A program made the translations under genes and the position numbers. From an uncultured Olsenella sp. (GTDB lineage Bacteria > Actinomycetota > Coriobacteriia > Coriobacteriales > Atopobiaceae): 64,000 nucleotides of DNA. The DNA is taken from the NCBI GenBank assembly GCA_900540955.1, contig UQIF01000001.1:105439-169438 (forward strand), given 5' to 3'. The notes under the pieces were generated by a model that was not told the origin of the DNA, ran no database searches, and saw only the letters and a list, made by a program, of their open reading frames with translations. Each line of letters opens with the position of its first letter. The stretch's first letter is position 1. This document shows positions 445-57,897 of this stretch, piece after piece.

Positions 445-1571
445 CGGCCCCAGGCTGTGCGCGCGGCTGGCGCGTGCTCGTGATCAACCCCGGCTCGACC
501 TCCACCAAGGTCGGCCTCTTTGACGGCGAGCGGGCCGTCTTCACCGTGAACGTCGCCCATGAGGCCTCCGAGCTCGCGAAGTTCGCGGGCGTGTCGGACC
601 AGCTCCCGTACCGCGTTGGGCTCATCGAGCAGGCGCTCGCCGAAAACGGCGTGGAGCTCGCGTCGATCGACGCTTTCGTCGGCCGCGGCGGCGGGCTCCT
701 CCCGCTTCCCGGCGGCACCTACGAGGTCGACGACGTGCTTCTTGACCACGCCACGCGCGGGGCCAACGGCGTCCAGCACCCGGCGCAGCTCGGCCCTCAG
801 ATCGCCCACGCCTTCGCGGGGCGCGTCGGGAAGCCCGCGTTCGTCGTGAACCCGCCCGACACCGACGAGCTTTGCGACGAGGCCAGGATGACCGGCGTCC
901 GCGGGGTGTATCGCCACGTGCACCTGCACGCCCTCAACCTCAAGGAGACCGCCATTCGCCACGCCGCCTCCGCCGGGCGCGCCTACGAGGAGTGCCGCTT
1001 CGTGGTCTGCCACATCGGCGGCGGAATCAGCGTGAGCGCCCATGACCGCGGGCGCATGGTCGACGGCGCCGATATCGTGGGCGGCGAGGGCCCGATGGCG
1101 CCCACCCGCTGCGGCGCCCTTCCCGTCGCAGAGGTCCTCGACTACCTCGATGCCGGCCACGCGACTGCCGACGTGCGCAGGATGTGCATGAAGACTGGCG
1201 GCTTCGTCGACCTTCTTGGCACGTCCGACGCGCTCGAGGTGAGCCGTCGCGCCGAGGCGGGGGATGAGGCGTGCAGCCGCGCCTGGGATGCCATGGTTTA
1301 TCAGATCTGCAAGGAGATAGGCGCCATGGCGGCGGCTTTGGGCGGCAAAGTTGACGGCATCCTGCTCGGCGGCGGCATGGTCCACAACAAGGGCCTCGTC
1401 CGCGCGATCGAGGAGCGCTGCGGCTGGATCGCGCCGGTCTTTGCGTACCCCGGCGAGTTCGAGCTCGAGGCCATGGCCGCCGGCGCCCGGCGCGTGCTCG
1501 ACGGCGTGGAGAAGCCCCTGCGCTACAGCGGAAAACCCGTCTTCGAGGGGTTTGCCTGCTTCGAGGATTAG
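441..1571 (+). CDS. buk: butyrate kinase
   Basis: 377 aa starting MTAPGCARGWRVLVINPGSTSTKVGLFDG (acetate/butyrate kinase N-terminal ASKHA motif). Ends ...AYPGEFELEAMAAGARRVL. The start overlaps the ptb stop. Confidence 0.85.
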   Translation: MTAPGCARGWRVLVINPGSTSTKVGLFDGERAVFTVNVAHEASELAKFAGVSDQLPYRVGLIEQALAENGVELASIDAFVGRGGGLLPLPGGTYEVDDVLLDHATRGANGVQHPAQLGPQIAHAFAGRVGKPAFVVNPPDTDELCDEARMTGVRGVYRHVHLHALNLKETAIRHAASAGRAYEECRFVVCHIGGGISVSAHDRGRMVDGADIVGGEGPMAPTRCGALPVAEVLDYLDAGHATADVRRMCMKTGGFVDLLGTSDALEVSRRAEAGDEACSRAWDAMVYQICKEIGAMAAALGGKVDGILLGGGMVHNKGLVRAIEERCGWIAPVFAYPGEFELEAMAAGARRVLDGVEKPLRYSGKPVFEGFACFED

Positions 1572-1621
1572 CCAGACGCACCGCATCGCGGGCAGGCCCA
1601 ATCGGGCCTGCCCGCGATGCC

Positions 1622-2515
1622 TTAATCCTCCACTCGGAGGAACTCGTCCAGGAATATGTCGAGAATCTCGTTTTTCCTCGAGGGGAGCCACGCGGCGCAG
1701 ACCCTCATCTCGCGTTCCTTTCCTCGGATGGGGACCGCGACGACGCGCTCCGAACCGGACATCGCGTCCGTGAAGTAACCGGGTAGCAGCGCATATCCCA
1801 TCCCGGCCGCGACGGCAAGGATGCTTGTCGCCACATCGTTCGAGACGTAGGCGACGGGCGTGCGTCCGGCTTCCGCGAGGTTGGCTTGGATCGCGGCGCC
1901 CTCGCCGTAGGACTGAGCGCCCTTCTTGATGTCTACGAGGGGCTCCCCATCGAGGTCCGACATCTCGATGGAGGTGCGCAGCGCCAGTGGGTGCGACACC
2001 GGCAGTACCGCCTTCAGGGGATAGTGCCTCAATAGCTGGAACTCGATGCCGTCCATGGAGTCGGGGTCGTAAAGGAGGTTGATTGCCAGATCTATTCGCT
2101 CGTCTCGCAGTGCCTCGTACAGCTCGCTCACGTTCTCGCGCATGAGGGAGAGGCGGACGCTCGGGTAGCTCCCGTGGAACTCCGAGAGCATGTCGGGAAG
2201 GTCGGTGCGCTCGTAGCCCTTCACGTAGCCGATCCCGAGCTCGCCCTCAGGGCCGCTTCCCGCCAGCGTAGCGCGCTTCTTCGCGTCGTCGAGGCGCGTG
2301 AGGACGTCGCGGGAGTCCTCGAGGAACGTCCGTCCCGCCGAGGTGAGCGAGACGCTGTGGTTGTCCCTGTTCAACAGTCGGCACCCCAGCTCGTGCTCCA
2401 AGGACTTGAGCTGCTGCGAGATTGCTGACTGCGACACATAGAGGCGGGCTGCGGCGCGCCTGAAGCTCTGGAGCTCAGCGATGGCGATGAAGTACTCGAG
2501 TTGCCTCGTGTTCAT
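1622..2515 (-). CDS. LysR-family transcriptional regulator
   Basis: N-terminal MNTRQLEYFIAIAELQSFRRAAARLYVSQSAISQQLKSLE wHTH plus a LysR substrate-binding domain. It is divergent from the membrane/reductase genes. Confidence 0.85.
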   Translation of the reverse strand: MNTRQLEYFIAIAELQSFRRAAARLYVSQSAISQQLKSLEHELGCRLLNRDNHSVSLTSAGRTFLEDSRDVLTRLDDAKKRATLAGSGPEGELGIGYVKGYERTDLPDMLSEFHGSYPSVRLSLMRENVSELYEALRDERIDLAINLLYDPDSMDGIEFQLLRHYPLKAVLPVSHPLALRTSIEMSDLDGEPLVDIKKGAQSYGEGAAIQANLAEAGRTPVAYVSNDVATSILAVAAGMGYALLPGYFTDAMSGSERVVAVPIRGKEREMRVCAAWLPSRKNEILDIFLDEFLRVED

Positions 2516-2658
2516 TTCCTATGCTCCTCATTGTGATAAGTAAAACTAATTGGATGCGCAATTTTACCTCAGAATTACTGCTATTGCGGCTATATACGAT
2601 TAGCTCATCAGATCGTCGCGCACTTTTTTGCGTGACAGATGACTAACAGGAGGCCACA

Positions 2659-3219
2659 ATGTCAGATCGGAACAAGATCAAGCTCGTCCAGGCGCTTTCC
2701 GGCGCCGTCGTCCTCACGATCCTTATGCAGGGGATGACCCTGCTCGGGATGCCCCAGTACATCTGGATGCTCTTCTTGCCGCTGCTCATGTTCTTTGCCC
2801 TGGGCGCCGACTTCAAGAAGATTCCCTCCATGCTCATCGGCTACGCCGTGGGCGAACTGTGGTGCGTCGTGAACTCGCTCGTCTCGGGTGCGTTCGCCGC
2901 GGCGTTCGGCGACAACCCGGTGCTCTCTCAGCTCATCCCCACGATTCTCGTCATTTTTTGCATCCTCACCGTTCACGAGAATATCTTCGAGGGCGCGGTC
3001 TTCTCGAACATTCCATGCATCTTCATGGGCATGGCGACCTCGTTCATGATGATCTTCTTCCAGCTTCCCATCACCTACCTGCACCTTTTTGGGTTCTGGT
3101 GCTACGGAACCGTCCTTGCCGCGTGCCTCGTCCTCGGCGGCATGGGCATGTGCTCGGCCATCTTCGGCAAGGAGCGAGCCGCGAAGGCGCTCATGCCCAA
3201 GGACGCTCAGAGCGATTAG
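2659..3219 (+). CDS. small polytopic membrane protein (5-6 TM), unknown function; possible substrate-uptake component for the downstream reductase
   Basis: 186 aa, highly hydrophobic with multiple predicted TM helices. RBS AGGAGG upstream. Divergent from the LysR gene in an AT-rich promoter region. Confidence 0.55.
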   Translation: MSDRNKIKLVQALSGAVVLTILMQGMTLLGMPQYIWMLFLPLLMFFALGADFKKIPSMLIGYAVGELWCVVNSLVSGAFAAAFGDNPVLSQLIPTILVIFCILTVHENIFEGAVFSNIPCIFMGMATSFMMIFFQLPITYLHLFGFWCYGTVLAACLVLGGMGMCSAIFGKERAAKALMPKDAQSD

Positions 3220-3241
3220 CGCCAGGCCAGGAGGAGTAATC

Positions 3242-5365
3242 ATGGAAAATGAAAAAAAGAAGTTCCAGAACAAAGTCTGCGCCACCGTCGAGGAAGCGCG
3301 CGCCGCTTACGAGGGCCTGCCGGGCGCGGCGAAGTACCCTCATGTGTTCGACCCCCTAGAGGTCCGCGGCAACGTCTTCCGCAACCGACTCATCGCGGCG
3401 CCCACGATGTTCTTCCATGCACCCTACTTCATCGAGCCCATTCGCGAGAACATCTACCGCATGGTCCAGGAGCGAGCCGAGGGTGGCTTTGGCTGCGTCG
3501 CGACCGGCGAGTTGCCGCTTAACTTCGAGGAGGGAAGAGGCGCGTTCATGGATCGCGCCATCGACTTCCGCCACTTCTACGGCTCGGATTTCGACGCGGC
3601 GAAGGAGTACGCCGACCGCATCCACGCAGGCGGGGCGCTCGCGTACATGGAGATCTCCCATGAGGGGCTCGAGGCGGACGACGCGGCGGAGCCCTGGGGC
3701 CCGTGCGACTTCGTCCGGCAGGAGGACGGGCGTCACGTGTTCGGCATGGACCGTCAGATGATGGAGAAGGTCTGCCGCGATTTTCTCGACATGGGTCGCT
3801 TTGCCACGGCCTGCGGATTCGACGGCGTGTTGCTTCACGGTGGACACGGGTTCCTGCTCCAGCAGTTCGTGTCGCCGCTGTTCAACAAACGCACGGACGA
3901 GTTCGGGGGCAGCGTCGAGAACCGCTCGCGTTTCCCCAAGATGTGCCTGCGCGCGCTGCGTGCCGGCATGGGGGAGGACAAGGTCCTCGAGCTCCGCATG
4001 AGCGCTGAGGACGGCGAGGAAGGGGGCATGACCCTCGAGGACTCCTGCGGCTTCGCCGAGCAGATCGACGGCATCGTGGACATCTTCCACGTGTCGAACG
4101 GCATCAAGAAGTACGGCAACGGCGGCGATACGTTCAGCGACATCTTCGACGTGCACGGCGTGAACCTCGAGCGCGCCGCGGCCATCAAGTCACATCTCAA
4201 GAAGAGTCTTGTCGCCGTGGTGGGCGGGTTCAACAGCGTCACTCAGGCAGAGGACGCCATCGCCGCGGGGAAGTGCGACTTCGTCGAGTATGCCCGCCAG
4301 TGCTTCGCCGACCCGCACTTCATCGAGAAGACCCTCCAGGGCCGCGAGGACATATGTCACCGTTGCCTGCGCTGCTTCCACTGCTACCCCGGCTTCTGCG
4401 AGCACCCCACCGACATCCCCCTGTGGTATCAGCTGCCACCCGAGGAGTTCATGAAGATCTACAGCCCCGCCGCCATGGGCGACTGCTCCGTGAACCCGAA
4501 CTCCGGCTTCGGCTACTATCCCGATAAGCTGCCCGCCCCGCAGGCGAGCCGCCGCGTGCTCGTCGTGGGAGGTGGCGTTGGCGGCATGCAGGCGGCCATC
4601 ACGGCCGCGCGTCGAGGCCACAAGGTAACCCTCGCGGAGGCGTCCGATCGGCTGGGCGGCGTGCTTCTCTTTGCGGAGCACGACCACGACAAGCGCGAGT
4701 GGATCGACTTCGTTGAGGTGCTCAAGCGAGAGCTCGCCGAGTCCGGTGCCGAGGTCGAGCTTGGCCGGCGCGTCGACGCCGCCTACATCGAGCGGATGCG
4801 GCCCGAGCACGTGATTATCGCGACCGGGGCAAAGAACGCACCCTGCCCGCTGCCCGGTTCCGACCTCGCCATGAACGCCGCCGACTCTTATTACCACCTC
4901 GACGAGCTCGGCCATTCCATCGTCATCGCTGGCGGCGGGCTCACGGCCTGCGAGACCGCGCTCAACCTCGCCGCGCTCGGCCATGAGGTCACCGTTGTGG
5001 CGCGCAAGGCGCGCATCACGCCGTCGACGTTCGGCTACTATCGCAATGCCCTTCTCTCCGAGATGGACAAGCGTGGCGTCAAGCAGGCGCTTCTCACCTG
5101 CCCCATCGAGTTCACCGAAGACGGCCTCGTGTGCGAGAAGAGCATCGACGAAAAGGGAACGCCCGGCGGAGAGCGCGTCGTGATTTCCGGCGATTCGTAC
5201 CTGTATTCCTTTGGCATGGTGCCTGCCGAGGAGGTCTCTGAGCCGCTTAAGGCTGCGGCCGAGAAGGTCGGCGCTCAGGTGGCCGTTATCGGCAACGCCC
5301 GGAGCGCTGGCATCGTGCGCGACGCCGTTCACGGCGGAAACGACGCTGCGATGGCCATACTCTAG
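3242..5365 (+). CDS. multidomain flavoprotein: OYE-like FMN oxidoreductase + 4Fe-4S Cys cluster + FAD/NAD(P)-binding domain (2-enoate reductase / 2,4-dienoyl-CoA reductase family)
   Basis: Start MENEKKKF with RBS AGGAGGAG. N-terminal Old-Yellow-Enzyme-like fold. Cys cluster CHRCLRCFHCYPGFCEHP. C-terminal Rossmann motif VLVVGGGVGGMQAAITAARRGHKVTLAE and a second GG-rich dinucleotide site (IVIAGGGLTACE). Confidence 0.8.
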   Translation: MENEKKKFQNKVCATVEEARAAYEGLPGAAKYPHVFDPLEVRGNVFRNRLIAAPTMFFHAPYFIEPIRENIYRMVQERAEGGFGCVATGELPLNFEEGRGAFMDRAIDFRHFYGSDFDAAKEYADRIHAGGALAYMEISHEGLEADDAAEPWGPCDFVRQEDGRHVFGMDRQMMEKVCRDFLDMGRFATACGFDGVLLHGGHGFLLQQFVSPLFNKRTDEFGGSVENRSRFPKMCLRALRAGMGEDKVLELRMSAEDGEEGGMTLEDSCGFAEQIDGIVDIFHVSNGIKKYGNGGDTFSDIFDVHGVNLERAAAIKSHLKKSLVAVVGGFNSVTQAEDAIAAGKCDFVEYARQCFADPHFIEKTLQGREDICHRCLRCFHCYPGFCEHPTDIPLWYQLPPEEFMKIYSPAAMGDCSVNPNSGFGYYPDKLPAPQASRRVLVVGGGVGGMQAAITAARRGHKVTLAEASDRLGGVLLFAEHDHDKREWIDFVEVLKRELAESGAEVELGRRVDAAYIERMRPEHVIIATGAKNAPCPLPGSDLAMNAADSYYHLDELGHSIVIAGGGLTACETALNLAALGHEVTVVARKARITPSTFGYYRNALLSEMDKRGVKQALLTCPIEFTEDGLVCEKSIDEKGTPGGERVVISGDSYLYSFGMVPAEEVSEPLKAAAEKVGAQVAVIGNARSAGIVRDAVHGGNDAAMAIL

Positions 5366-5397
5366 CGTTTCCCTCGGCGCGATTGGGCGACGAGGCG

Positions 5398-5453
5398 GGA
5401 CCCGGCCCCCGTGGCTATGTCCGATGCGGGGAGCCGGGCCCTTCTTCCTTCTC
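5398..5453 (+). terminator. GC-rich hairpin followed by T-rich tract downstream of the reductase gene
   Basis: gggacccggccccc...ggggagccgggccc inverted repeat followed by ttcttccttctc. Confidence 0.35.
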
Positions 5454-5461
5454 AAGGTTCC

Positions 5462-5483
5462 GTTTGTGTGCAATCACACAAAC
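5462..5483. promoter_or_regulatory. perfect palindrome GTTTGTGTG-caat-CACACAAAC (candidate regulator binding site)
   Basis: 9-bp perfect inverted repeat with a 4-nt spacer. A second palindrome GGGACCttGGTCCC lies at ~5517-5530. Both sit upstream of the hypothetical ORF at 5587. Confidence 0.35.
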
Positions 5484-5586
5484 GCGCTTCCGCTCAGAGG
5501 GCGTTTATTGAGGTCTGGGACCTTGGTCCCGCGCGTGCGGGGCTCTACGATTTTATTAGTAAATACTCGCCGAGAAAGGCCGTCGC

Positions 5587-5985
5587 ATGTGCGAATGGAA
5601 CCGAAACCTTATCATCCAGGACATTGTCTTGGCCATCGTCATAAACACGTCGGCGACGCTTCTGGGCGGCGACCCGTTCGACCACACGTGGTACATCTTT
5701 ACCTGCGTGGCGCTCGCGACGAACGTGCTCGGGCAGCTCCTCTTGCCGACCGGCTCCTGGGCATGCGCCCTCACCGACTGGGCGGGGGATGCGAAATGGC
5801 GCGTCTACGTCCAGATCTTCATCGAGAACCTCATCTTCGTTACTATAATCAGCTTCACGGAGGCTTGGGTGCACACTGGGGGCATCGCCGTCGTCGCGGC
5901 CTGGCTTTCCACGTACGTGCAGCTCGTCCTCGTGGGCTACGTGACGTCGGTCGTGCTCTACCACGCGTTGCGCCCCTGCGCCTAG
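5587..5985 (+). CDS. hypothetical small membrane protein
   Basis: 132 aa ORF with about 4 hydrophobic segments. No recognisable family; coding status uncertain. Confidence 0.35.
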   Translation: MCEWNRNLIIQDIVLAIVINTSATLLGGDPFDHTWYIFTCVALATNVLGQLLLPTGSWACALTDWAGDAKWRVYVQIFIENLIFVTIISFTEAWVHTGGIAVVAAWLSTYVQLVLVGYVTSVVLYHALRPCA

Positions 5986-6063
5986 CCGTGTCGCTTAGGT
6001 GCGCGCCTGGTCGCGTCGCCTTAGCAACAAGAAACATGCCGAGGGCGCGCACCTCTCAACATA

Positions 6064-6250
6064 TTGCAGCTAAGAAAACGCTGGTTCCAGCCGGTGGCGG
6101 CTTACTCTTGCTCAGAAAGCTCAAGTTCCAGCTGTAAAAAAGCGCCAAATGCTAAGAATCCCGGGGTTCCAGCCTGTTAAACCGACTGGAACCCCGGGAT
6201 TCTTAGCGGCTTGCAAGCTGGCCGGGGCTGGAACTTGAGGTTTCTGAGCA
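6064..6250. repeat. nested inverted/direct repeat cluster (GCTAAGAA-N5-GGTTCCAGCC motif; 22-bp perfect IR inside a ~22-bp outer IR)
   Basis: Inner IR gctaagaatcccggggttccag (6151-6172) / ctggaaccccgggattcttagc (6186-6207). Outer IR ctcagaaagctcaagttccagc (6111-6132) / gctggaacttgaggtttctgag (6228-6249). A degenerate direct copy gctaagaaaacgctggttccagcc lies at 6069-6092. The GTTCCAG/CTGGAAC motif occurs 5 times. Palindrome GCTTGCAAGC at 6210-6219. Confidence 0.6.
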
Positions 6251-6305
6251 TGCCGCGGACGCCGGCTTGTGTCCGCACGGCGGCCGCGTTGATGCATCCC
6301 GCCCG

Positions 6306-7013
6306 CTACAGCTCGTCGCAGAAGCTCACGAAGTCGAGCATGTCGATCGAGTCGATGAAGGCCTGCTTGCGGCCCATGTGCTCGAGCTTGACCGTCACGG
6401 TGACCGCGCAGCCGCGGCTGCCGGCGCTGTCTTTGGTGATGGCGAAGTCCGAGCACTCGCAGTCCCACGAGTGGAGCTTCTTTAGGAGCTCCTTGATGCC
6501 CGAGCGGTCCTCGAGCTCGATGTAGAGGTCGAAGATTCGCGAGTTCTTGCGCAGCCAGTCGTCGAGCTTGCTCAAGGCCACGAACGTGACCACGACGAAG
6601 ACCATGGCCACGAGCGCCGCCTCGACAAATCCGATTCCCACGGCAAGCCCGATGCAGGCGCAGGCCCACAGGCCGGCGGCGGTCGTGAGGCCGCGCACCT
6701 CGTTGCGGCGGGTCACGATGATCGTGCCCACCCCGAGAAAACCGACGCCCGAGACTACCTGCGAGCCGATGCGGTTGACGTCTGCGTTGAACTCGGGGTA
6801 GGTCACGGCCACGTACTGCGAGACGATCATGGTCATGGCGGAGCCGAGGCACACGAGGACGTGCGTCTTTATGCCGGCGCCTTTGTTGCGGTACTCGCGG
6901 TCGAGCCCGATGACGGTGCCGACCATCGTCGCGAGCAGAAGGCGCAGCAGAATCGCCTCGCCGCTCCAGGCGGCCGCGGCGGAAAACACCCCGTGGAGCC
7001 ATTCCGTTATCAT
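6306..7013 (-). CDS. mgtC: MgtC/SapB family membrane protein
   Basis: 235 aa from MITEWLHGVFSAAAAW... with MgtC-type TM region (LDREYRNKGAGIKTHVLVCLGSA) and a C-terminal ACT-like domain. The long Arg-rich N-terminal extension in the ORF track was rejected. Confidence 0.8.
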   Translation of the reverse strand: MITEWLHGVFSAAAAWSGEAILLRLLLATMVGTVIGLDREYRNKGAGIKTHVLVCLGSAMTMIVSQYVAVTYPEFNADVNRIGSQVVSGVGFLGVGTIIVTRRNEVRGLTTAAGLWACACIGLAVGIGFVEAALVAMVFVVVTFVALSKLDDWLRKNSRIFDLYIELEDRSGIKELLKKLHSWDCECSDFAITKDSAGSRGCAVTVTVKLEHMGRKQAFIDSIDMLDFVSFCDEL

Positions 7014-7057
7014 GCGCCGGCCTCCGCTCGACCCTTGATGCCTTCTGTATCCCGCCG

Positions 7058-8137
7058 CTACTCGTCGCCGAAGCTGATGCCGAGCAGCTTGGCCTCGCGG
7101 ACGAGGTCGCACTCGGGGTCGACGTACTTGAGCTTGCCCGCCACCTCCTCGAGCGGGACGCGGCGCATCTGGTCGTCGACCTTGGCGATCATGACGCCGT
7201 ATGCGCCCTCCAGGCAGGCGCGCGCCGCCTCGACGCCGCACTGCGTGGCGAAGATTCGGTCCTGGGCGTCGGGCTGCCCGCCGCGCTGGGTATGGCCGGG
7301 CACCGCCACGCGGATCTCGCGGCCGGTGCGGGAGGCGATCTCCTCGGCGATGTCGTAGGCGACCGATGGCTTCACGCGGGCGGCGACCTTTGCCTTGTAG
7401 TCCTTCTTCTTCATCGCCGCCTCCTCGCGGGAGATGGCGCCCTCTGCCACGACCACGATCGCAAAGCGGCCGCCGTCCTTCTCTCGCTTCTCGATGGCGT
7501 TCACGACGTTGTCCATGTCGTAGGGGATCTCGGGGATGAGGATGACGTCCGCGCCGCCGGCGACGCCCGCGTACAGCGGGATCCAACCGACCTTGTGGCC
7601 CATGATCTCGATGACGAAGACGCGGCCGTGCGAGCTCGCCGTCGTGTGGATGTCGTCGATGCAGCGGGTGGCGACGTCGATGGCCGAGGTGAAGCCGAAG
7701 GTCATGTCGGTGCCGTAGGTGTCGTTGTCGATGGTCTTGGGCAGGGCGATGACGTTCAGCCCCTCCTCGCGCAGGCGGTTTGCGGTCTTGGTCGAGCCGT
7801 TGCCGCCGAGCATAAAGAGGCAGTCGAGCTTGAGCTTCTTGTACGTGGCGACCATCGCCGGGACCTTCTTGACGCCGTCGGCCTCGGGCGTGTCGAGCAG
7901 CTTGAACGGCGTGCGCGAGGTGCCCAGGATGGTGCCGCCCTTGGTGAGGATGCCCGAGAAGTCGCCCCAGCTCATCTTGCGGTAGCGGCCGTAGATCATG
8001 CCCTGGTAGCCGTCCTCGAAGCCGTAGATCTCGACCTTCTCCTTGGAGTTATTGAGCACGGTCTTGACGATGCCGCGCATGGTCGCGTTGAGCGCCTGGC
8101 AGTCGCCGCCGGAGGTGAGCAGGCCGATTCGAAGCAT
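7058..8137 (-). CDS. pfkA: ATP-dependent 6-phosphofructokinase
   Basis: Start MLRIGLLTSGGDCQALNA with RBS GAGAGGAG. Motifs GGNGS, IPKTIDND, MGHKVG and PGHTQRGG. The longer ORF (to 8221) reads through the element's inverted repeat and was rejected. Confidence 0.9.
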   Translation of the reverse strand: MLRIGLLTSGGDCQALNATMRGIVKTVLNNSKEKVEIYGFEDGYQGMIYGRYRKMSWGDFSGILTKGGTILGTSRTPFKLLDTPEADGVKKVPAMVATYKKLKLDCLFMLGGNGSTKTANRLREEGLNVIALPKTIDNDTYGTDMTFGFTSAIDVATRCIDDIHTTASSHGRVFVIEIMGHKVGWIPLYAGVAGGADVILIPEIPYDMDNVVNAIEKREKDGGRFAIVVVAEGAISREEAAMKKKDYKAKVAARVKPSVAYDIAEEIASRTGREIRVAVPGHTQRGGQPDAQDRIFATQCGVEAARACLEGAYGVMIAKVDDQMRRVPLEEVAGKLKYVDPECDLVREAKLLGISFGDE

Positions 8138-8152
8138 GGTGGCTCCTCTCGT

Positions 8153-8185
8153 TTTGGGACAAAAGGGACGGGGGATTTTGTCCCA
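8153..8185. repeat. left terminal hairpin/inverted repeat of RAYT element
   Basis: 33-nt palindromic repeat that is the reverse complement of the 9038-9070 copy. Confidence 0.75.
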
Positions 8186-8288: not shown

Positions 8289-9032
8289 ATGGTCAGGATC
8301 GCGAGGAAGGTCTCGGGCTCGGGGATTTACCACGTTGTCATGCGCGGGGCGGGGCGGCAGCTGCTGTTCGAGGACGACCGCGACAGGAGGCGGTTCCTTG
8401 AGCTTATGCACGAGTCGTTTACAGACCACGGGGTTAAGCTGCTGTGCTTCTGCCTCATGCCGAACCATGTTCACCTGATCGCCCGGGGCGAGCTTGCGGC
8501 ACTCAGCGCGGCCATGCATCTTCTGGGGACCAGGTACGCGCTCAGGTTCAACAAGAAGTCCGACCATTGCGGGCCCGTCTTCGAGGACCGCTTCTACAGC
8601 GACCCGATCGAGACCGACGCGCACTTCCTCGCCGCGCTCCGCTACGTTCTCATGAACCCCGAGCACGCGGGGATCTGCCCGGCGAGCGAGTATGCCTGGA
8701 GCTCGTACTCGGAATACGATGGCGAGGCTGCGTACTGCGACGCCTCGCTCGTGTCCGAACTTTTGGGGGACGGCTCGTCTGTTCAGGCGCTCGTTGCTGG
8801 CGGCGCCGACGCTTGCTACCGGTTCGAGGGCAAGAAGGGCATGGACGACCTCGAGGCGATCGGCTTCGCCCGCGAGGTCATCGGGCGCATGGGCATCGGC
8901 CTCGGGGAAATCAAGACGCTGCCCAGGCTCAGAAGGTCCGAGGCGCTTCGCGAGCTGAAGTCAGCGGGGCTGTCCACGCGCCAGATAGAGAGGCTGACGG
9001 GCATCGGGAGGAGTACCATTGCGAGGGCATGA
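8289..9032 (+). CDS. HuH Y1 tyrosine transposase (IS200-like / REP-associated tyrosine transposase family) with C-terminal HTH
   Basis: 247 aa. HuH motif CLMPNHVHLIA. Y-motif LRYVLMNPEHAGIC, resembling the RAYT Y..NPVRAGLV motif. C-terminal LSTRQIERLTGIGRSTIARA helix-turn-helix. Confidence 0.75.
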   Translation: MVRIARKVSGSGIYHVVMRGAGRQLLFEDDRDRRRFLELMHESFTDHGVKLLCFCLMPNHVHLIARGELAALSAAMHLLGTRYALRFNKKSDHCGPVFEDRFYSDPIETDAHFLAALRYVLMNPEHAGICPASEYAWSSYSEYDGEAAYCDASLVSELLGDGSSVQALVAGGADACYRFEGKKGMDDLEAIGFAREVIGRMGIGLGEIKTLPRLRRSEALRELKSAGLSTRQIERLTGIGRSTIARA

Positions 9033-9035
9033 CGG

Positions 9036-9070
9036 TTTGGGACAAAATCCCCCGTCCCTTTTGTCCCAAA
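9036..9070. repeat. right terminal hairpin/inverted repeat of RAYT element
   Basis: Reverse complement of 8153-8185. Confidence 0.75.
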
Positions 9071-9086
9071 TTGAGGAGGAGAAGTG

Positions 9087-53469: not shown

Positions 53470-53859
53470 ATGGCTGGGTTCGATATTAGCGATGGCATCT
53501 ACAAGGCGTTCCTTGCGGGCGTGGGCGCCGTCGCGTCCGGTGCCGAGAAGGGTCAGCAGGTCATCGACGAGTTCGTGAAGAAGGGCCAGATCACGGTTGA
53601 GCAGGGCAAGAACCTCAACTCCGAGCTCACCCGCAAGGTCAAGGAGACCTTCGATGCCACGGTAAGCGGCGCCTCCGACTCTGCCCTGCGCTCGAGGCTC
53701 GAGTCCATGACGCCCGAGCAGCGCGCCGAGTACGCAAAGAAGGTCGCCGACATGAGCGCCGCGATCGATGCCGAGCGCGCCGGTGCGGCGGCGGACGCCG
53801 TTGCCGAGGACGCTCCGGTGGCCGCCGAGGACGTCGTCGAGCCCGACGCCACTGAGTAG
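53470..53859 (+). CDS. phasin-like / small acidic helical protein
   Basis: 129 aa MAGFDISDGIYKAFLAGVGAVASGAEKGQQVIDEFVKKGQITVEQGKNL... Resembles the PHA-granule phasin N-terminus, but the assignment is weak. Confidence 0.45.
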   Translation: MAGFDISDGIYKAFLAGVGAVASGAEKGQQVIDEFVKKGQITVEQGKNLNSELTRKVKETFDATVSGASDSALRSRLESMTPEQRAEYAKKVADMSAAIDAERAGAAADAVAEDAPVAAEDVVEPDATE

Positions 53860-53866
53860 CCCTGGC

Positions 53867-55642
<1,776 letters not shown>

Positions 55643-55664
55643 CGTCCTTGTTATCGATAGATGG

Positions 55665-55719
55665 TAAATAAATCCCAGGTCACAGCCATGCAATTTGGCT
55701 GGGGCCTGGGATTTATTTA
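55665..55719. terminator. 15-bp perfect-stem hairpin between convergent ubiB and tex
   Basis: TAAATAAATCCCAGG-(25 nt)-CCTGGGATTTATTTA. It is followed by a (GGAT)4-5 microsatellite at ~55727-55745. Confidence 0.5.
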
Positions 55720-55749
55720 CGGCAGGAAGGATGGATGGATGGATGGGCG

Positions 55750-57897
55750 CTATTTTCCCTGGACCATGGTCAGCGAGATTTTCTTGCGGTCTAGATCGAC
55801 CTTCTCGACCCAGACCGTCACGTTGTCTCCCACGCGCACGACGTCGCTCGGGTGCTTGACGAAGCGGTTCGCGAGCTTCGAGATGTGCACGAGGCCGTCC
55901 TGATGGACGCCCACGTCGACGAAGGCTCCGAAGTCGACGACGTTGCGCACCGTGCCCTTGAGCTCCATGCCAGGCCGAAGGTCCTCGATCGAGAGCGCTG
56001 CCCGGCTGAAGATCACCTCGGGGGCGTCGTCTCGCGGGTCGCGCCCTGGCTTCTTGAGCTCGCCGACGATGTCGATGAGGGTGGGGGCACCGCAGCCAAG
56101 GTCGCCCGCGAGGTCGGCGACGCTGCCCAGGCGGCGCTCGATGTCGGGCACGCCGCCGCGCTTGAGCTCGTCGGCGGAGACGCCCGCGCGCTTGAGCACC
56201 TCGGTGGCCACGGGGTAGCTCTCGGGGTGGACGCTCGTGGCGTCCAGGGGGTTGTCGCCCCCGGTGATGCGCAAAAAGCCGGCGGAGTTGAGGAATGCCT
56301 TGGGCCCGAGCTTGGGAACCTTCTTGAGCTGGCGCCTGTCGGTGAAGGCGCCGTTCTCCTCGCGGTATGCGACGATGTTGTCGGCCACCGCGGAGGTGAT
56401 GCCCGAGACGTAGCCCAGAAGGCTCGCGCTTGCGGTGTTCACATCCACGCCGACGCGGTTGACCACGTCCTCGACGACGTTTCCGAGCGTGCGGGAGAGC
56501 TCCGCCTGGTCAAGGTCGTGCTGGTACTGGCCTACGCCTATTGACTGGGGCGGGATCTTTACCAGCTCGGCGAGCGGGTCTTGCAGGCGTCGTCCCAGGC
56601 TCATGGCGCCGCGCACGGTGACGTCGAGGTCGGGGTATTCGCGGCTCGCGAGCTCGGATGCCGAGTAGACTGAGGCGCCCGCCTCGTTGACGATGGTGTA
56701 ACGGAGCTCCGGCGCCTGCTCGGAGATGAACTCCGAGACGACCTCCTCGGTCTCGCGGCTCGCGGTGCCGTTTCCGATGACGATGGTGTTGACGCGGTCT
56801 TTGCTCACCAGGCGGGCAAGCTCGCGCTTGGTTCCCGCGACGTCGTGGCGGGGCTTGGTGGGATAGACCACGCCGTGGTCGAGGAGCTTGCCGAACTCAT
56901 CGATGACGGCGACCTTGCAGCCGGTCCGGTATCCCGGGTCGAGCGCGAGGACCCTCGCGCCCCTCACAGGCCTTGCGGAAAGCAGGCCCTCGAGGTTCTT
57001 CGCAAAGACGTCGATGGCGTCGGCCTGCGCGCGTGCGGTGAGGTCGGAGCGGGCCTCGCGCTCGAGCGAGGGGGCCATGAGGCGTCTGTAGCCGTCTGCG
57101 ACGGCGGCGTCGAATACCGGGGCAAAGACGCCCTGTCGGCGCGGCCATCGGCGTCCGAGCCGCTCCACCGCCGCGGCGCCGTCGACGTTCACGCGCACGC
57201 GGAGCTTGCCCTCGCGCTCGCCGCGGTCGATAGCGAGGATGCGGTGGTTGGGGATCTTGCGCAGGGGCTCCGAGAAGCCGTAATACGGCTCGTAGGGGGT
57301 CTTCTCGGCGGCATCGGTCGCCTCTACGACGATGTCGGCGGTGTTTCTGGTGAACGCGCGCAGCTCGGCGACGTTCTCTGGGTCCTCCGCCACGGTCTCG
57401 GCCACGATATCCGAAGCGCCGGCGAGGGCCTTCTCGGGCGTGTCGAATCCGGCCTCCTCGTTGACGTAGGCGGCCGCCGCGTCGAGCGCCGACCCTCTGG
57501 CGGACGCCTGCATGATGATCATGTTCGCCAAGGGCTCGAGTCCGGCTTCGCGCGCCTTCTGGGCGCGGGTGAGTCGCTTCTTTCGGAAGGGCTTGTACAG
57601 GTCGAGCACGCGCTGCAGGGTCGCGGCCTCTGCGATCTGGGACCTGAGCTCATCGGTGAGCTTGCCCTGCGCGTCGATGAGGGCGATGACGTCTTGCTTG
57701 CGCTCCTCGAGGTTTCGCAGGTAGGAAAGGCGCTCCTCGAGGGCGCGGAGCGCCACGTCGTCCATGCCGCCCGTCGCCTCCTTGCGGTAGCGCGCGATGA
57801 AGGGGATGGTGTTCCCCTCGTCGATGAGCTTGACCGCCGCCTCGACGTCGGTCTTCTTTAGCTTGAGTTCCTCGGCCAGCTTGGCAATAAGGTCCAT
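55750..57897 (-). CDS. tex: transcription accessory protein Tex (YqgF/RNase-H-like, HhH, S1 domains)
   Basis: 715 aa MDLIAKLAEELKLKKTDVEAAVKLIDEGNTIPFIARYRKE. The C-terminal S1 domain ends ...GDNVTVWVEKVDLDRKKISLTM. Confidence 0.9.
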   Translation of the reverse strand: MDLIAKLAEELKLKKTDVEAAVKLIDEGNTIPFIARYRKEATGGMDDVALRALEERLSYLRNLEERKQDVIALIDAQGKLTDELRSQIAEAATLQRVLDLYKPFRKKRLTRAQKAREAGLEPLANMIIMQASARGSALDAAAAYVNEEAGFDTPEKALAGASDIVAETVAEDPENVAELRAFTRNTADIVVEATDAAEKTPYEPYYGFSEPLRKIPNHRILAIDRGEREGKLRVRVNVDGAAAVERLGRRWPRRQGVFAPVFDAAVADGYRRLMAPSLEREARSDLTARAQADAIDVFAKNLEGLLSARPVRGARVLALDPGYRTGCKVAVIDEFGKLLDHGVVYPTKPRHDVAGTKRELARLVSKDRVNTIVIGNGTASRETEEVVSEFISEQAPELRYTIVNEAGASVYSASELASREYPDLDVTVRGAMSLGRRLQDPLAELVKIPPQSIGVGQYQHDLDQAELSRTLGNVVEDVVNRVGVDVNTASASLLGYVSGITSAVADNIVAYREENGAFTDRRQLKKVPKLGPKAFLNSAGFLRITGGDNPLDATSVHPESYPVATEVLKRAGVSADELKRGGVPDIERRLGSVADLAGDLGCGAPTLIDIVGELKKPGRDPRDDAPEVIFSRAALSIEDLRPGMELKGTVRNVVDFGAFVDVGVHQDGLVHISKLANRFVKHPSDVVRVGDNVTVWVEKVDLDRKKISLTMVQGK

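Follow-up and report, generated by a model that had tools for sequence, protein, structure and literature searches.

What role does a dense cluster of nested palindromes and direct repeats play when it sits between two convergent genes, at the 3' ends of both? Such a cluster occupies positions 6069-6249 of the window (the whole 64-kb stretch of DNA analysed here, from an uncultured Olsenella sp.). A sequence-only reading had proposed that it could be a REP array unrelated to the local RAYT element, a MITE-like element, an sRNA acting on mgtC or a multi-site operator, and had remarked that there is more structure here than a terminator needs. The remark was correct and every repeat or palindrome that it listed lies where it had been placed, apart from the spacer within the motif, which was off by one: the true value is N6, and the N5 pattern gives 0 matches.

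A nested cluster of five units between convergent genes

The 23-nt unit GCTMAGAA-N6-RGTTCCAGC is present five times in the cluster, three times on the forward and twice on the reverse strand; same-strand units are 41-42 nt apart, and the whole forms two nested hairpins. Its parts and the flanking genes are as follows.

5587-5985, + strand: flanking ORF of 132 aa, no Pfam match
6069..6091, + strand: unit F3, the outermost forward unit, unpartnered; GCTAAGAA-AACGCT-GGTTCCAGC
6092..6109: spacer F3-F2, 18 nt; the family conserves its length, not its sequence
6110..6132, + strand: unit F2, left arm of the outer hairpin; GCTCAGAA-AGCTCA-AGTTCCAGC
6133..6150: spacer F2-F1, 18 nt, TGTAAAAAAGCGCCAAAT; the mgtC strand reads AUUUGGCGCUUUUUU directly after the inner hairpin
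6151..6173, + strand: unit F1, the innermost forward unit and left arm of the central palindrome; GCTAAGAA-TCCCGG-GGTTCCAGC
6174..6184: central loop of the inner hairpin, 11 nt; loops in the family are 11-13 nt and unconserved
6185..6207, - strand: unit R1, the innermost reverse unit; GCTAAGAA-TCCCGG-GGTTCCAGT, with an N6 identical to that of F1
6208..6226: spacer R1-R2, 19 nt, not complementary to the spacer at 6133-6150
6209-6218: 10-bp palindrome GCTTGCAAGC, inside spacer R1-R2
6227..6249, - strand: unit R2, right arm of the outer hairpin; GCTCAGAA-ACCTCA-AGTTCCAGC, matching F2 at 22 of 23 positions
6151-6178 / 6180-6207: inner inverted repeat, 28 nt, 93% complementary, with a perfect 22-nt core
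6109-6132 / 6227-6250: outer inverted repeat, 24 nt, 96% complementary
6069 / 6110 / 6151: direct repeat family, spaced by 41 and 41 nt
6306-7013, - strand: mgtC (PF02308, E 1e-39)

With up to three mismatches allowed, the unit pattern has five matches in the 64-kb window, all of them inside 6069-6249, whereas shuffled sequences yield a mean of 0.45 and none of 100 reaches five. The motif GTTCCAGC occurs nine times in the window against 2.4 expected, four of the nine falling in the cluster. When 6060-6255 is folded, the predicted stability is -107.5 kcal/mol on the + strand (z -9.3) and -103.4 kcal/mol on the - strand (z -10.3), and 0 of 200 shuffles are as stable on either strand.

One copy of a dispersed repeat family

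Is this arrangement peculiar to one locus? Pattern scans recovered a total of 61 clusters at at least 18 flank-defined loci, all in high-GC Coriobacteriales DNA, although many of the 61 come as orthologous copies from a small number of Olsenella-like species and the counts are accordingly not independent. The window cluster is one copy of a dispersed, non-coding, intergenic repeat family of Coriobacteriales. The genome scan contributed 15 Coriobacteriia loci (13 in a single Olsenella MAG and one each in O. uli and a Collinsella MAG); its other 12 matches are lone and lie in unrelated taxa, where by our own arithmetic about 17 are expected by chance. The metagenome scan added 41 further cluster-bearing loci, all of 61-69% GC. 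One Olsenella MAG holds 14 clusters with about 55 units, the copy number being tens of units per genome, and wherever genes could be called the clusters are all intergenic. The window itself carries a second, degenerate member, a single doublet at 55664..55722 between the convergent ORFs 53768-55642 (+) and 55750-57897 (-), in which GTAAATAA-ATCCCA-GGTCACAGC faces an inverted copy at a 34-nt offset; it was detected at E 3e-7 by nhmmer with a profile of 42 central palindromes.

The family, which spans Olsenella and Collinsella relatives among the gut Coriobacteriales, is apparently undescribed: full-text searches of the literature for the motif itself and for repeats from Olsenella, Collinsella or Coriobacteriia returned no description of it. 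BLAST of the cluster against plasmid and phage collections gave no match, and scans of viral contigs for the unit, and for the unit-IS junction described below, gave only lone chance matches in low-GC DNA. In Rfam 15, searched at permissive thresholds with the region and five related loci, there was no credible family match; 11 of the region's 12 matches, the best included, are to eukaryotic miRNA or other hairpin models, with 14-24 bits against gathering scores of 39-95, and the related loci behave alike.

Conserved units, free spacers and a covarying centre

The family unit is 23-26 bp long, directional and non-palindromic, of the form (gc)GCTAAGAA-ACCCCR-GGTTCCAGC(c), and its consensus, gcGCTAAGAAACCCCRGGTTCCAGCc, contains neither GTAG nor CGTC on either strand. 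Clusters comprise 2-7 units separated by spacers of 8-29 nt and follow one plan, n forward and then m reverse units with their GGTTCCAGC ends toward the centre. Forward units precede reverse units, with a single reversal, in all 59 clusters counted, the exceptions amounting to one stray extra unit at the far end of one cluster; clusters cut by contig ends show a single block only. Of the same-strand spacings in these 59 clusters, 124 are 41 nt, 15 are 40 or 42 nt, 18 are 31 nt and seven are 50-52 nt, with no values between the 31, 40-42 and 50-52 nt classes; the centre offset is 34-35 nt in 46 cases. Spacings of 41 nt are represented at 17 of the 18 loci and those of 31 nt at five of them.

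What is conserved, then, is the two halves of the unit and the spacing, while spacers and loops vary freely. Seventeen unit positions are near-invariant among 75 units, and the spacers have no consensus; no spacer or loop is common to any two clusters of one genome, and the 11 central loops of the Olsenella MAG are all different, as are the N6 cores. The innermost units are the best conserved, with 0.76 mismatches versus about 1.5 in the outermost. Within the innermost pair, F1 and R1 agree at 5.06 of the 6 N6 positions, with perfect agreement in 22 of 48 pairs, compared with a background of 3.44 of 6 and 3.8% perfect; the N6 agreement of F2 and R2 (3.33) is at background level. Family-wide complementarity is thereby a property of the innermost pair only, which forms a 23-26-bp palindrome with an 11-13-nt loop, and the nested outer hairpin of the window cluster is unusual even inside the family. 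Across 42 central palindromes 94% of cells pair and 12 of 25 pairs change on both sides, values attained in 0 of 500 shuffles, although this complementarity could reflect birth by inverted duplication instead of selection. Folded singly, five units reach only -1.4 to -2.3 kcal/mol (z -0.2 to +1.1) and form no hairpin alone.

This architecture also sets the family apart from several described kinds of repeat. CRISPR arrays are long same-strand runs of identical 23-47-nt repeats with unique spacers of similar or greater length, an identity ruled out here by the 2-7 units, the mid-cluster reversal and the 8-29-nt spacers. A group II intron, an integron attC site, a retron, a type III toxin-antitoxin repeat and a dif-like site were set aside by description, whether for misfitting ends, for want of partner genes or for the many loci per genome.

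Variation between strains and insertion of an IS3-family element

The cluster is present in strain L119, whose MgtC is 96% identical, and absent from the mgtC loci of three other relatives. Between L119 and the window there are differences at 5 of 84 positions in the unit halves and at 28 of 67 in the spacers plus loop (Fisher p 1e-7); four-fold sites of mgtC differ at 12 of 129, and synteny between the two breaks no more than 3 nt from the 5' edge of the outermost unit, F3. Unit number varies at other loci, one locus being represented by L019, L052 and L070 with 3, 3 and 4 units and another by L009, L015, L048 and L094 with 6-7 units. Arrays probably grow and shrink by duplicating unit-plus-spacer modules.

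In one genome an IS3-family IS, identified as such from a Collinsella aerofaciens record, adjoins cluster centres, and at three junctions it meets the innermost unit at the same nucleotide. Because the arrays around its two identical copies differ, the IS inserted into pre-existing clusters. Three loci that are homologous through a DUF1622 neighbour gene carry no insertion, only an intact terminator hairpin, and a metagenome scan for the unit-IS junction returned 0 matches.

Regulatory RNA, terminator or operator?

Could the cluster act as a structured RNA, either an sRNA or 3'-UTR element regulating mgtC or an oversized bidirectional terminator? Points in favour are the very high stability of the fold on either strand, the position between convergent genes, the U-run after the inner hairpin on the mgtC strand and, in a relative that lacks the cluster, a GC-rich hairpin with TTTCTTT after it in the corresponding position. 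This reading is nevertheless improbable, and the proposal of an sRNA acting on mgtC finds no support: like arrays stand at at least 18 unrelated loci, in convergent and apparently non-convergent contexts, the three relatives' mgtC loci lack the array, and no Rfam family reaches its gathering score. Moreover, conserved positions are equal whichever strand is transcribed, and complementarity across the family is confined to the central pair. A U-tail is possible at only 4 of 84 central-hairpin flanks, which means that canonical intrinsic termination is not a family property; a terminator consensus scan made no call at the window cluster. As to context, gene calls show that the window cluster and the cluster at L113 5082-5344 fill gaps between convergent genes, and at least one well-resolved locus (L009 7379-7641 / L015) looks divergent, not convergent. 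Orientation deduced from GC3/GC2 frame statistics is unreliable and miscalls the window itself, so these statements rely on gene-called or very clear-frame loci.

The presence of five phased copies of one motif with weak dyad symmetry speaks for an operator at which a local regulator would act on mgtC or the membrane ORF. The array is, however, downstream of both genes, the sole promoter-like match in 5500-7200 (5822-5849) is inside the membrane ORF and outside the array, identical arrays stand beside unrelated genes, and three orthologous mgtC loci have none. The earlier suggestion of a multi-site operator can on these grounds be regarded as very nearly dismissed.

A remnant of a DDE transposon?

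The ends of Tn7 or Mu carry directional sites in the same orientation within each end and inverted between ends. The clusters might accordingly be seen as MITE-like deletion derivatives of a DDE transposon, the forward and reverse blocks being collapsed ends with phased transposase sites in the style of Tn7, Mu or IS21. The units, of about 22 bp, are indeed directional, with one orientation per half and inversion between halves, presence and absence differ among close strains, and synteny between the window and L119 breaks close to the outermost unit. We still consider this origin rather doubtful, as conservation is best in the innermost and not in the outermost units, the spacers and loops are unrelated among copies of one genome, and no full-length parent was found, the sole element between half-clusters being the IS3-family IS. 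In the 60-nt outer flanks there was neither a target-site duplication nor a terminal consensus; at the mgtC locus the relatives are rearranged. The earlier MITE-like proposal comes close as far as dispersal goes, but the marks of a classical MITE, a target-site duplication and a common internal sequence, were not seen. A CTTCTTG/CAAGAAG motif of the outer flanks was left unused; its enrichment is about 2-fold and confounded by orthologous loci.

The RAYT gene and the REP/REPIN comparison

The window also contains a RAYT gene with its own flanking repeats.

8148-8185 and 9038-9075: RAYT-flanking palindrome TGGGACAAAATCCCCCGTCCCTTTTGTCCCA, also named the GGGACAAAA palindrome, unlike the cluster unit
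8289-9032: RAYT (Y1_Tnp) gene, PF01797, 2 kb from the cluster

Are the units then classical REPs or REPINs, that is, single-stranded DNA hairpin substrates of a RAYT (a Y1 HUH enzyme) such as the one encoded at 8289-9032, which would copy doublets genome-wide? Several features speak for this: the family is dispersed, intergenic and multi-copy, its central inverted doublet shows strong arm covariation and is REPIN-like, a Y1_Tnp gene is present in the window, unit number is strain-variable as in BIMEs (PMC3333891), and the clusters are targeted by an IS, like REPs (PMC1525189). The REP, however, is by definition an imperfect palindrome, 20-40 nt in length, whereas single units here fail to fold, and they lack the GTAG (or CGTC) that marks the hairpin foot of REPs (PMC3333891, PMC3733652). 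The gene at 8289-9032 is flanked by the other palindrome, TGGGACAAAATCCCCCGTCCCTTTTGTCCCA, which folds alone (-8.1 kcal/mol, z -5.5), is dispersed and unchanged across genomes, and is therefore the obvious cognate REP. In addition, strain L109 has a RAYT and no cluster, a tblastn search of all fetched loci with the window RAYT as query revealed no homologue near the other fetched clusters, and same-genome copies have no common loop or spacer. Mobilisation of the units by a RAYT thus appears unlikely. Among the identities proposed beforehand, a REP array unrelated to the RAYT is the closest, in that the family is dispersed, intergenic, multi-copy and unlike the RAYT-flanking palindrome; it falls short in that the units are not hairpins, carry no GTAG and flank no RAYT.

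The family and the REP/BIMEs of E. coli and other Proteobacteria have several traits in common. Both consist of short extragenic units, dispersed and regularly spaced in intergenic gaps, often at gene 3' ends; in both, inverted pairs form hairpins and unit number varies between strains; and just as REP/BIMEs are targets of IS3-family IS (IS1397, ISKpn1), the clusters here are abutted by one. The proposed roles of REP/BIMEs include those of terminator, mRNA stabiliser and topological insulator, binding gyrase, IHF and Pol I (PMC3333891, PMC2817692, PMC1525189). REPs in BIMEs alternate in orientation and typically exceed 100 per genome (PMC2817692), whereas the Coriobacteriales clusters are two opposed blocks with one reversal and their units number tens per genome; BIME linkers are conserved motif types, whereas the spacers here conserve length only; the REP is an imperfect palindrome with a 5' GTAG, the units unfolded and untagged; and REPs flank their own RAYT gene, a place taken here by another repeat. 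The REPINs of Pseudomonas share the inverted doublet core, the short loop and arms that are complementary while differing between copies (PMC3116915). In contrast to REPINs, which replicate as one unit and whose copies in a genome accordingly have arms and spacer in common, the clusters have arms that are not hairpins, no loop sequence common to the doublets of a genome and additional phased satellite units beside the doublet, and no cognate RAYT was found.

Two other systems invite comparison. Neisserial intergenic mosaic elements are arrays of the 20-bp dRS3 (ATTCCC-N8-GGGAAT) with variable segments between; they resemble the present family in their short unit with a variable core, unconserved separators, restriction to a lineage and role as insertion hot spots for mobile DNA, but dRS3 is a true palindrome, its spacing is irregular (50-150 bp) and there is no convergent two-block polarity. 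Phased arrays of binding sites are found in plasmid iterons, in centromeres (F sopC, 12 x 43 bp) and at the ends of Tn7 or Mu, and like the clusters they have directional sites of about 20 bp at whole helical turns, with sites conserved and spacers not, and with one orientation within a block and the opposite between blocks. Those arrays, however, occur once per replicon or element, beside the gene of their binder, whereas the clusters are found at a dozen chromosomal loci or more, where no gene is associated with them.

Probable phased docking sites around a hairpin-forming centre

We favour, with modest confidence, a BIME-like repeat cluster of new architecture, in which the units probably serve as phased protein-docking sites around a hairpin-forming centre; the function is the part that we infer. 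The units would be docking sites for a putative sequence-specific protein that binds duplex DNA cooperatively, and because 31, 41 and 52 bp are whole turns, the GTTCC cores would share one helix face on both sides of the dyad. Phasing is the sole argument for recognition of the units as duplex DNA, and simple tandem duplication would also give 41 bp. The central palindrome could adopt a cruciform or, as RNA or single-stranded DNA, a hairpin form. The cluster would then resemble a BIME of E. coli in its action and punctuate the ends of genes structurally or topologically. At the window cluster, the inner hairpin and the AUUUGGCGCUUUUUU that comes after it on the mgtC strand probably double as the 3' end of the mgtC transcript.

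Might the docking protein be one dedicated to these sites? A tentative proposal, which we put forward as a possibility somewhat against our expectation, is that a putative Coriobacteriales protein of this kind assembles on the phased units as a multi-subunit complex covering 150-300 bp of the intergenic gap around the cruciform-prone centre; a domesticated transposase or recombinase would be one candidate, a nucleoid-associated factor another. Such a protein would account for the whole-turn spacing and the strict convergent polarity, as well as for the conservation of the unit (not the spacer) across genera and the synteny break at the cluster edge. If true, the clusters would be part of a system other than REP/RAYT, one that structures the chromosome, acts as a barrier or serves recombination.

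Implications

Interspersed repeats of the REP/BIME type have a hand in where transcription ends, in supercoiling domains, in IS insertion and in the rearrangement of genomes, and knowledge of them comes almost entirely from Proteobacteria. With this family the gut Actinomycetota (Olsenella, Collinsella and relatives) gain their own, differently built counterpart of REP/BIME, in genomes that also carry a classical RAYT/REP pair. The family accounts for breaks between contigs, and for loci that vary among strains, in metagenome assemblies of these bacteria, and its clusters offer VNTR-like strain markers. For annotators there is a caution, in that the hairpins of the clusters are not to be called sRNAs or operators. 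Finally, if the phasing reflects a dedicated binder, the family would provide a handle for a new DNA-organising or recombination factor.

The cluster between the 132-aa ORF and mgtC

The gap between a 132-aa ORF and mgtC is filled by five copies of a 23-nt directional unit, GCTMAGAA-N6-RGTTCCAGC, arranged as a forward block (F3 to F1, F1 innermost) followed by a reverse block (R1 and R2, R1 innermost):

5587-5985, + strand: 132-aa ORF, flanking the cluster
6069, 6110 and 6151, + strand: starts of the three forward units
6185-6207 and 6227-6249, - strand: the two reverse units
6306-7013, - strand: mgtC (PF02308), flanking the cluster

Same-strand units start 41-42 nt apart and the central turn-round is an offset of 34 nt, giving an inner inverted repeat of 28 nt with 93% complementarity (22 nt of it perfect) and an outer one of 24 nt with 96%. 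The nest of inverted and direct repeats described in the sequence-only reading is thereby confirmed, with five units and both nested inverted repeats present, although the core between the unit halves is N6 and not N5. The 64-kb window holds five matches to the unit motif, all inside the cluster, against 0.45 expected, and the comparison with shuffled controls proposed earlier shows the RNA fold of each strand to be ~9-10 standard deviations more stable than the shuffles; together these statistics exclude a chance origin. G+C is ~50% in the cluster versus ~65% in the surrounding DNA. On either side of the cluster lies a further hairpin, one at 5997-6054 (perfect 11-bp stem, 36-nt loop) directly past the stop of the 132-aa ORF, the other, read from the sequence, at 6255-6277 (GCGGAC-N10-GTCCGC) directly past the mgtC stop. 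The pair may be older structures at the 3' ends of these genes. The organism behind the window is an uncultured relative from the human gut: gut metagenome contigs encode an identical MgtC, and among named homologues the nearest, from an Atopobiaceae bacterium, shares 58% identity.

A dispersed family with fixed polarity and spacing

Is the cluster private to mgtC? When one genome per species was scanned with the pattern GCTAAGAA-N6-GGTTCCAGCC, 27 loci were returned, 12 of them lone matches in unrelated taxa (~17 lone matches being expected by chance, by our own arithmetic) and 15 in Coriobacteriia, each of the latter a cluster of 2-7 units (a single uncultured Olsenella MAG accounts for 13; O. 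uli DSM 7084 and a Collinsella MAG have one each). The same pattern found 62 loci on metagenome contigs, 21 of them lone matches and 41 with clusters, every one of these 61-69% G+C. The overall count is 61 clusters at 18 or more flank-defined loci, many of them orthologues from a few species, and the window cluster belongs to a dispersed family. No family unit was found in viral contigs, nor the family in plasmid and phage collections, among Rfam families or, as a description, in full-text literature searches. Locus L065 separately carries a TPP-riboswitch-like match unrelated to the family (7238-7324, - strand; 49.6 bits, slightly below Rfam's gathering score of 54.3). At window 55664-55722, between convergent ORFs at 53768-55642 (+) and 55750-57897 (-), lies a single, degenerate doublet of the family: GTAAATAA-ATCCCA-GGTCACAGC plus an inverted copy around a 9-nt loop (nhmmer E 3e-7 against the family profile).

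Forward units precede reverse ones in 59/59 clusters counted, with the GGTTCCAGC ends pointing to the centre; clusters cut by contig ends show a single block only, and in one cluster a stray extra unit sits at the far end. Same-strand spacing is 41 nt (n=124), 40 or 42 nt (n=15), 31 nt (n=18) or 50-52 nt (n=7), with no intermediates, and 46 centre offsets measure 34-35 nt; by locus, 41 nt occurs in 17/18 and 31 nt in 5/18. The consensus from 75 units, gcGCTAAGAA-ACCCCR-GGTTCCAGCc, has 17 nearly invariant positions; the 18-nt spacers and the 11-13-nt central loops have no consensus of their own. Innermost units carry 0.76 mismatches to the unit consensus versus ~1.5 in the others. F1 and R1 share 5.06/6 core positions, 22/48 pairs being perfect, against a background of 3.44 with 3.8% perfect; when 42 central palindromes are aligned, 94% of cells pair and 12/25 pairs change on both sides, values that no shuffle reaches. 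This complementarity of the central arms could be a relic of birth by inverted duplication. F2 and R2, by contrast, share 3.33 core positions, which equals background, so that the nested outer hairpin (F2 and R2 match at 22/23 positions in the window) is a peculiarity of the window copy, whereas the central hairpin is a family feature. Because adjoining outer units are alike (4.4/6 core positions) and spacers are related in some arrays, such as that of L003, a MAG contig, arrays would appear to grow via duplication of unit-plus-spacer modules. A separate motif, CTTCTTG(CC)/(GG)CAAGAAG, like the unit's left half, recurs 10-60 nt outside the outermost units of many clusters (e.g. at L010, L014, L046, L055, L056, L086 and L113, and at window 6025-6036), with an enrichment of only ~2-fold that is confounded by orthologous loci.

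Strain variation

Whether orthologous mgtC loci lack the unit, a check suggested by the sequence-only reading, has a divided answer. No units lie downstream of mgtC in three relatives: a strain with a 98%-identical MgtC (L109-L111) and two species at 81% (L106-L108, GCA_002440065.1) and 74% (L112). In place of the cluster, L106 reads as a GC-rich hairpin followed by TTTCTTT, at which the consensus scan called no terminator. The 96% strain L119, on the other hand, has an orthologous cluster with identical unit number and order. Divergence between the window and L119 climbs from 1.3% in pfk through 4% in mgtC (where 12/129 four-fold sites differ) towards the cluster, where unit halves differ at 5/84 positions, N6 cores at 6/30, and spacers plus loop at 28/67 (Fisher p ~1e-7 versus the halves); relative to the intervening DNA, the halves are thus constrained or homogenised. 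Homology to L119 ends <=3 nt from the outermost unit (window 6069), beyond which the genes differ, those of L119 being unrelated ABC-transporter genes; in L109 the membrane ORF (the 132-aa ORF) is inverted and a 4-kb block, from an oxidoreductase gene to a LysR-family regulator gene, is missing. The cluster thus borders a strain-variable segment, window ~1570-6306 by comparison with L109, L119, L106 and L112. Unit number itself differs between samples at two other loci (L019/L052/L070 and L009/L015/L048/L094).

An IS3-family element at cluster centres

Three contigs of the Olsenella MAG end 68-77 nt past an innermost unit, and all three junctions read GGTTCCAGC-C|TGAACTGC..., abutting the same nucleotide, with no loop remnant seen at any of them; k=77 overlaps at the contig ends indicate a multi-copy element. 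The loci concerned are:

L002 918-985
L012 1-68
L003 1-77
L081 11810-11856
L065 11599-11652
L118 4001-5457

At its ends the element matches an annotated Collinsella aerofaciens IS of the IS3 family (orfA and orfB, inverted repeats TGAACTGC...CTTGGAC, 3-bp duplication CAG). Because the arrays beside its two identical copies differ, the element inserted into clusters already there. Another IS copy sits in a terminator-hairpin loop at L081; a relative has this hairpin intact. The IS3-family elements IS1397 and ISKpn1 insert specifically into REP palindromes (PMC1525189), a behavioural parallel that likens the clusters to REP/BIME.

Relationship to known repeat systems

We class the family as interspersed intergenic repeat clusters. 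Their core resembles a REPIN, and REP/BIME is the system most like them in its working; yet, unlike REPs as defined in the literature (PMC3333891; PMC2817692), the single units fail to fold (z -0.2 to +1.1), carry no GTAG tag, do not alternate in orientation and do not flank a RAYT gene, and no RAYT was found near any other cluster of the family. The window does hold a RAYT, with a palindrome of its own:

8289-9032: RAYT-like Y1_Tnp gene, flanked by inverted copies of TGGGACAAAATCCCCCGTCCCTTTTGTCCCA
8148-8185 and 9038-9075: the TGGGACAAAATCCCCCGTCCCTTTTGTCCCA copies, inverted relative to each other

The 29-mer TGGGACAAAATCCCCCGTCCCTTTTGTCCCA folds alone (-8.1 kcal/mol, z -5.5) and recurs without change both in the Olsenella MAG and at metagenome loci (L003, L012, L019, L052, L057, L070, L084, L104), where it occurs as singles, inverted doublets and tandem arrays of 40-nt period (L070 510/550/590), sometimes directly adjoining clusters of the studied family. 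It is the natural REP of the window RAYT, the two forming a classical REP/RAYT pair, a second repeat family beside the studied one. The sequence-only reading was in part right, in its option of an array that has nothing to do with the RAYT element; its sRNA and multi-site operator readings are unsupported. The family does not fit a MITE either: its termini are not the best conserved part, and neither a target duplication nor a common interior sequence was seen. Neisseria dRS3 repeat arrays, and the phased arrays of iterons, centromeres or Tn7 ends, offer partial analogies.

Proposed function

What might such clusters do? Most likely, they are BIME-like structural elements at gene ends, the units serving as phased docking sites for a putative protein around a centre that can fold as a 23-28-bp hairpin and might form a cruciform. 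The spacings of 31, 41 and 52 bp differ by one helical turn and, given a centre offset of 34-35 bp, GTTCC cores would lie ~11 and ~52 bp to either side of the dyad, ~1 and ~5 turns away, and share one helix face. It is because of this whole-turn, one-face layout that docking sites are proposed: the layout would resemble an array of sites bound cooperatively on duplex DNA, and recognition of a single-strand hairpin would not require it. A 41-bp spacing also follows from tandem duplication alone. As to gene ends, the window cluster and that at L113 5082-5344 fill gaps between convergent genes (by gene calls). On the mgtC strand the inner hairpin is directly followed by AUUUGGCGCUUUUUU, and for this reason it probably also serves to terminate or stabilise the mgtC transcript, a role that would be local to the window and not family-wide, since a U-tail would arise from only 4/84 family flanks.

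That a gut lineage so little studied should yield a new repeat family is in itself no surprise. What is unusual, and amenable to experiment, is an architecture of strict convergence and helical phasing that is conserved across genera and has no known partner.
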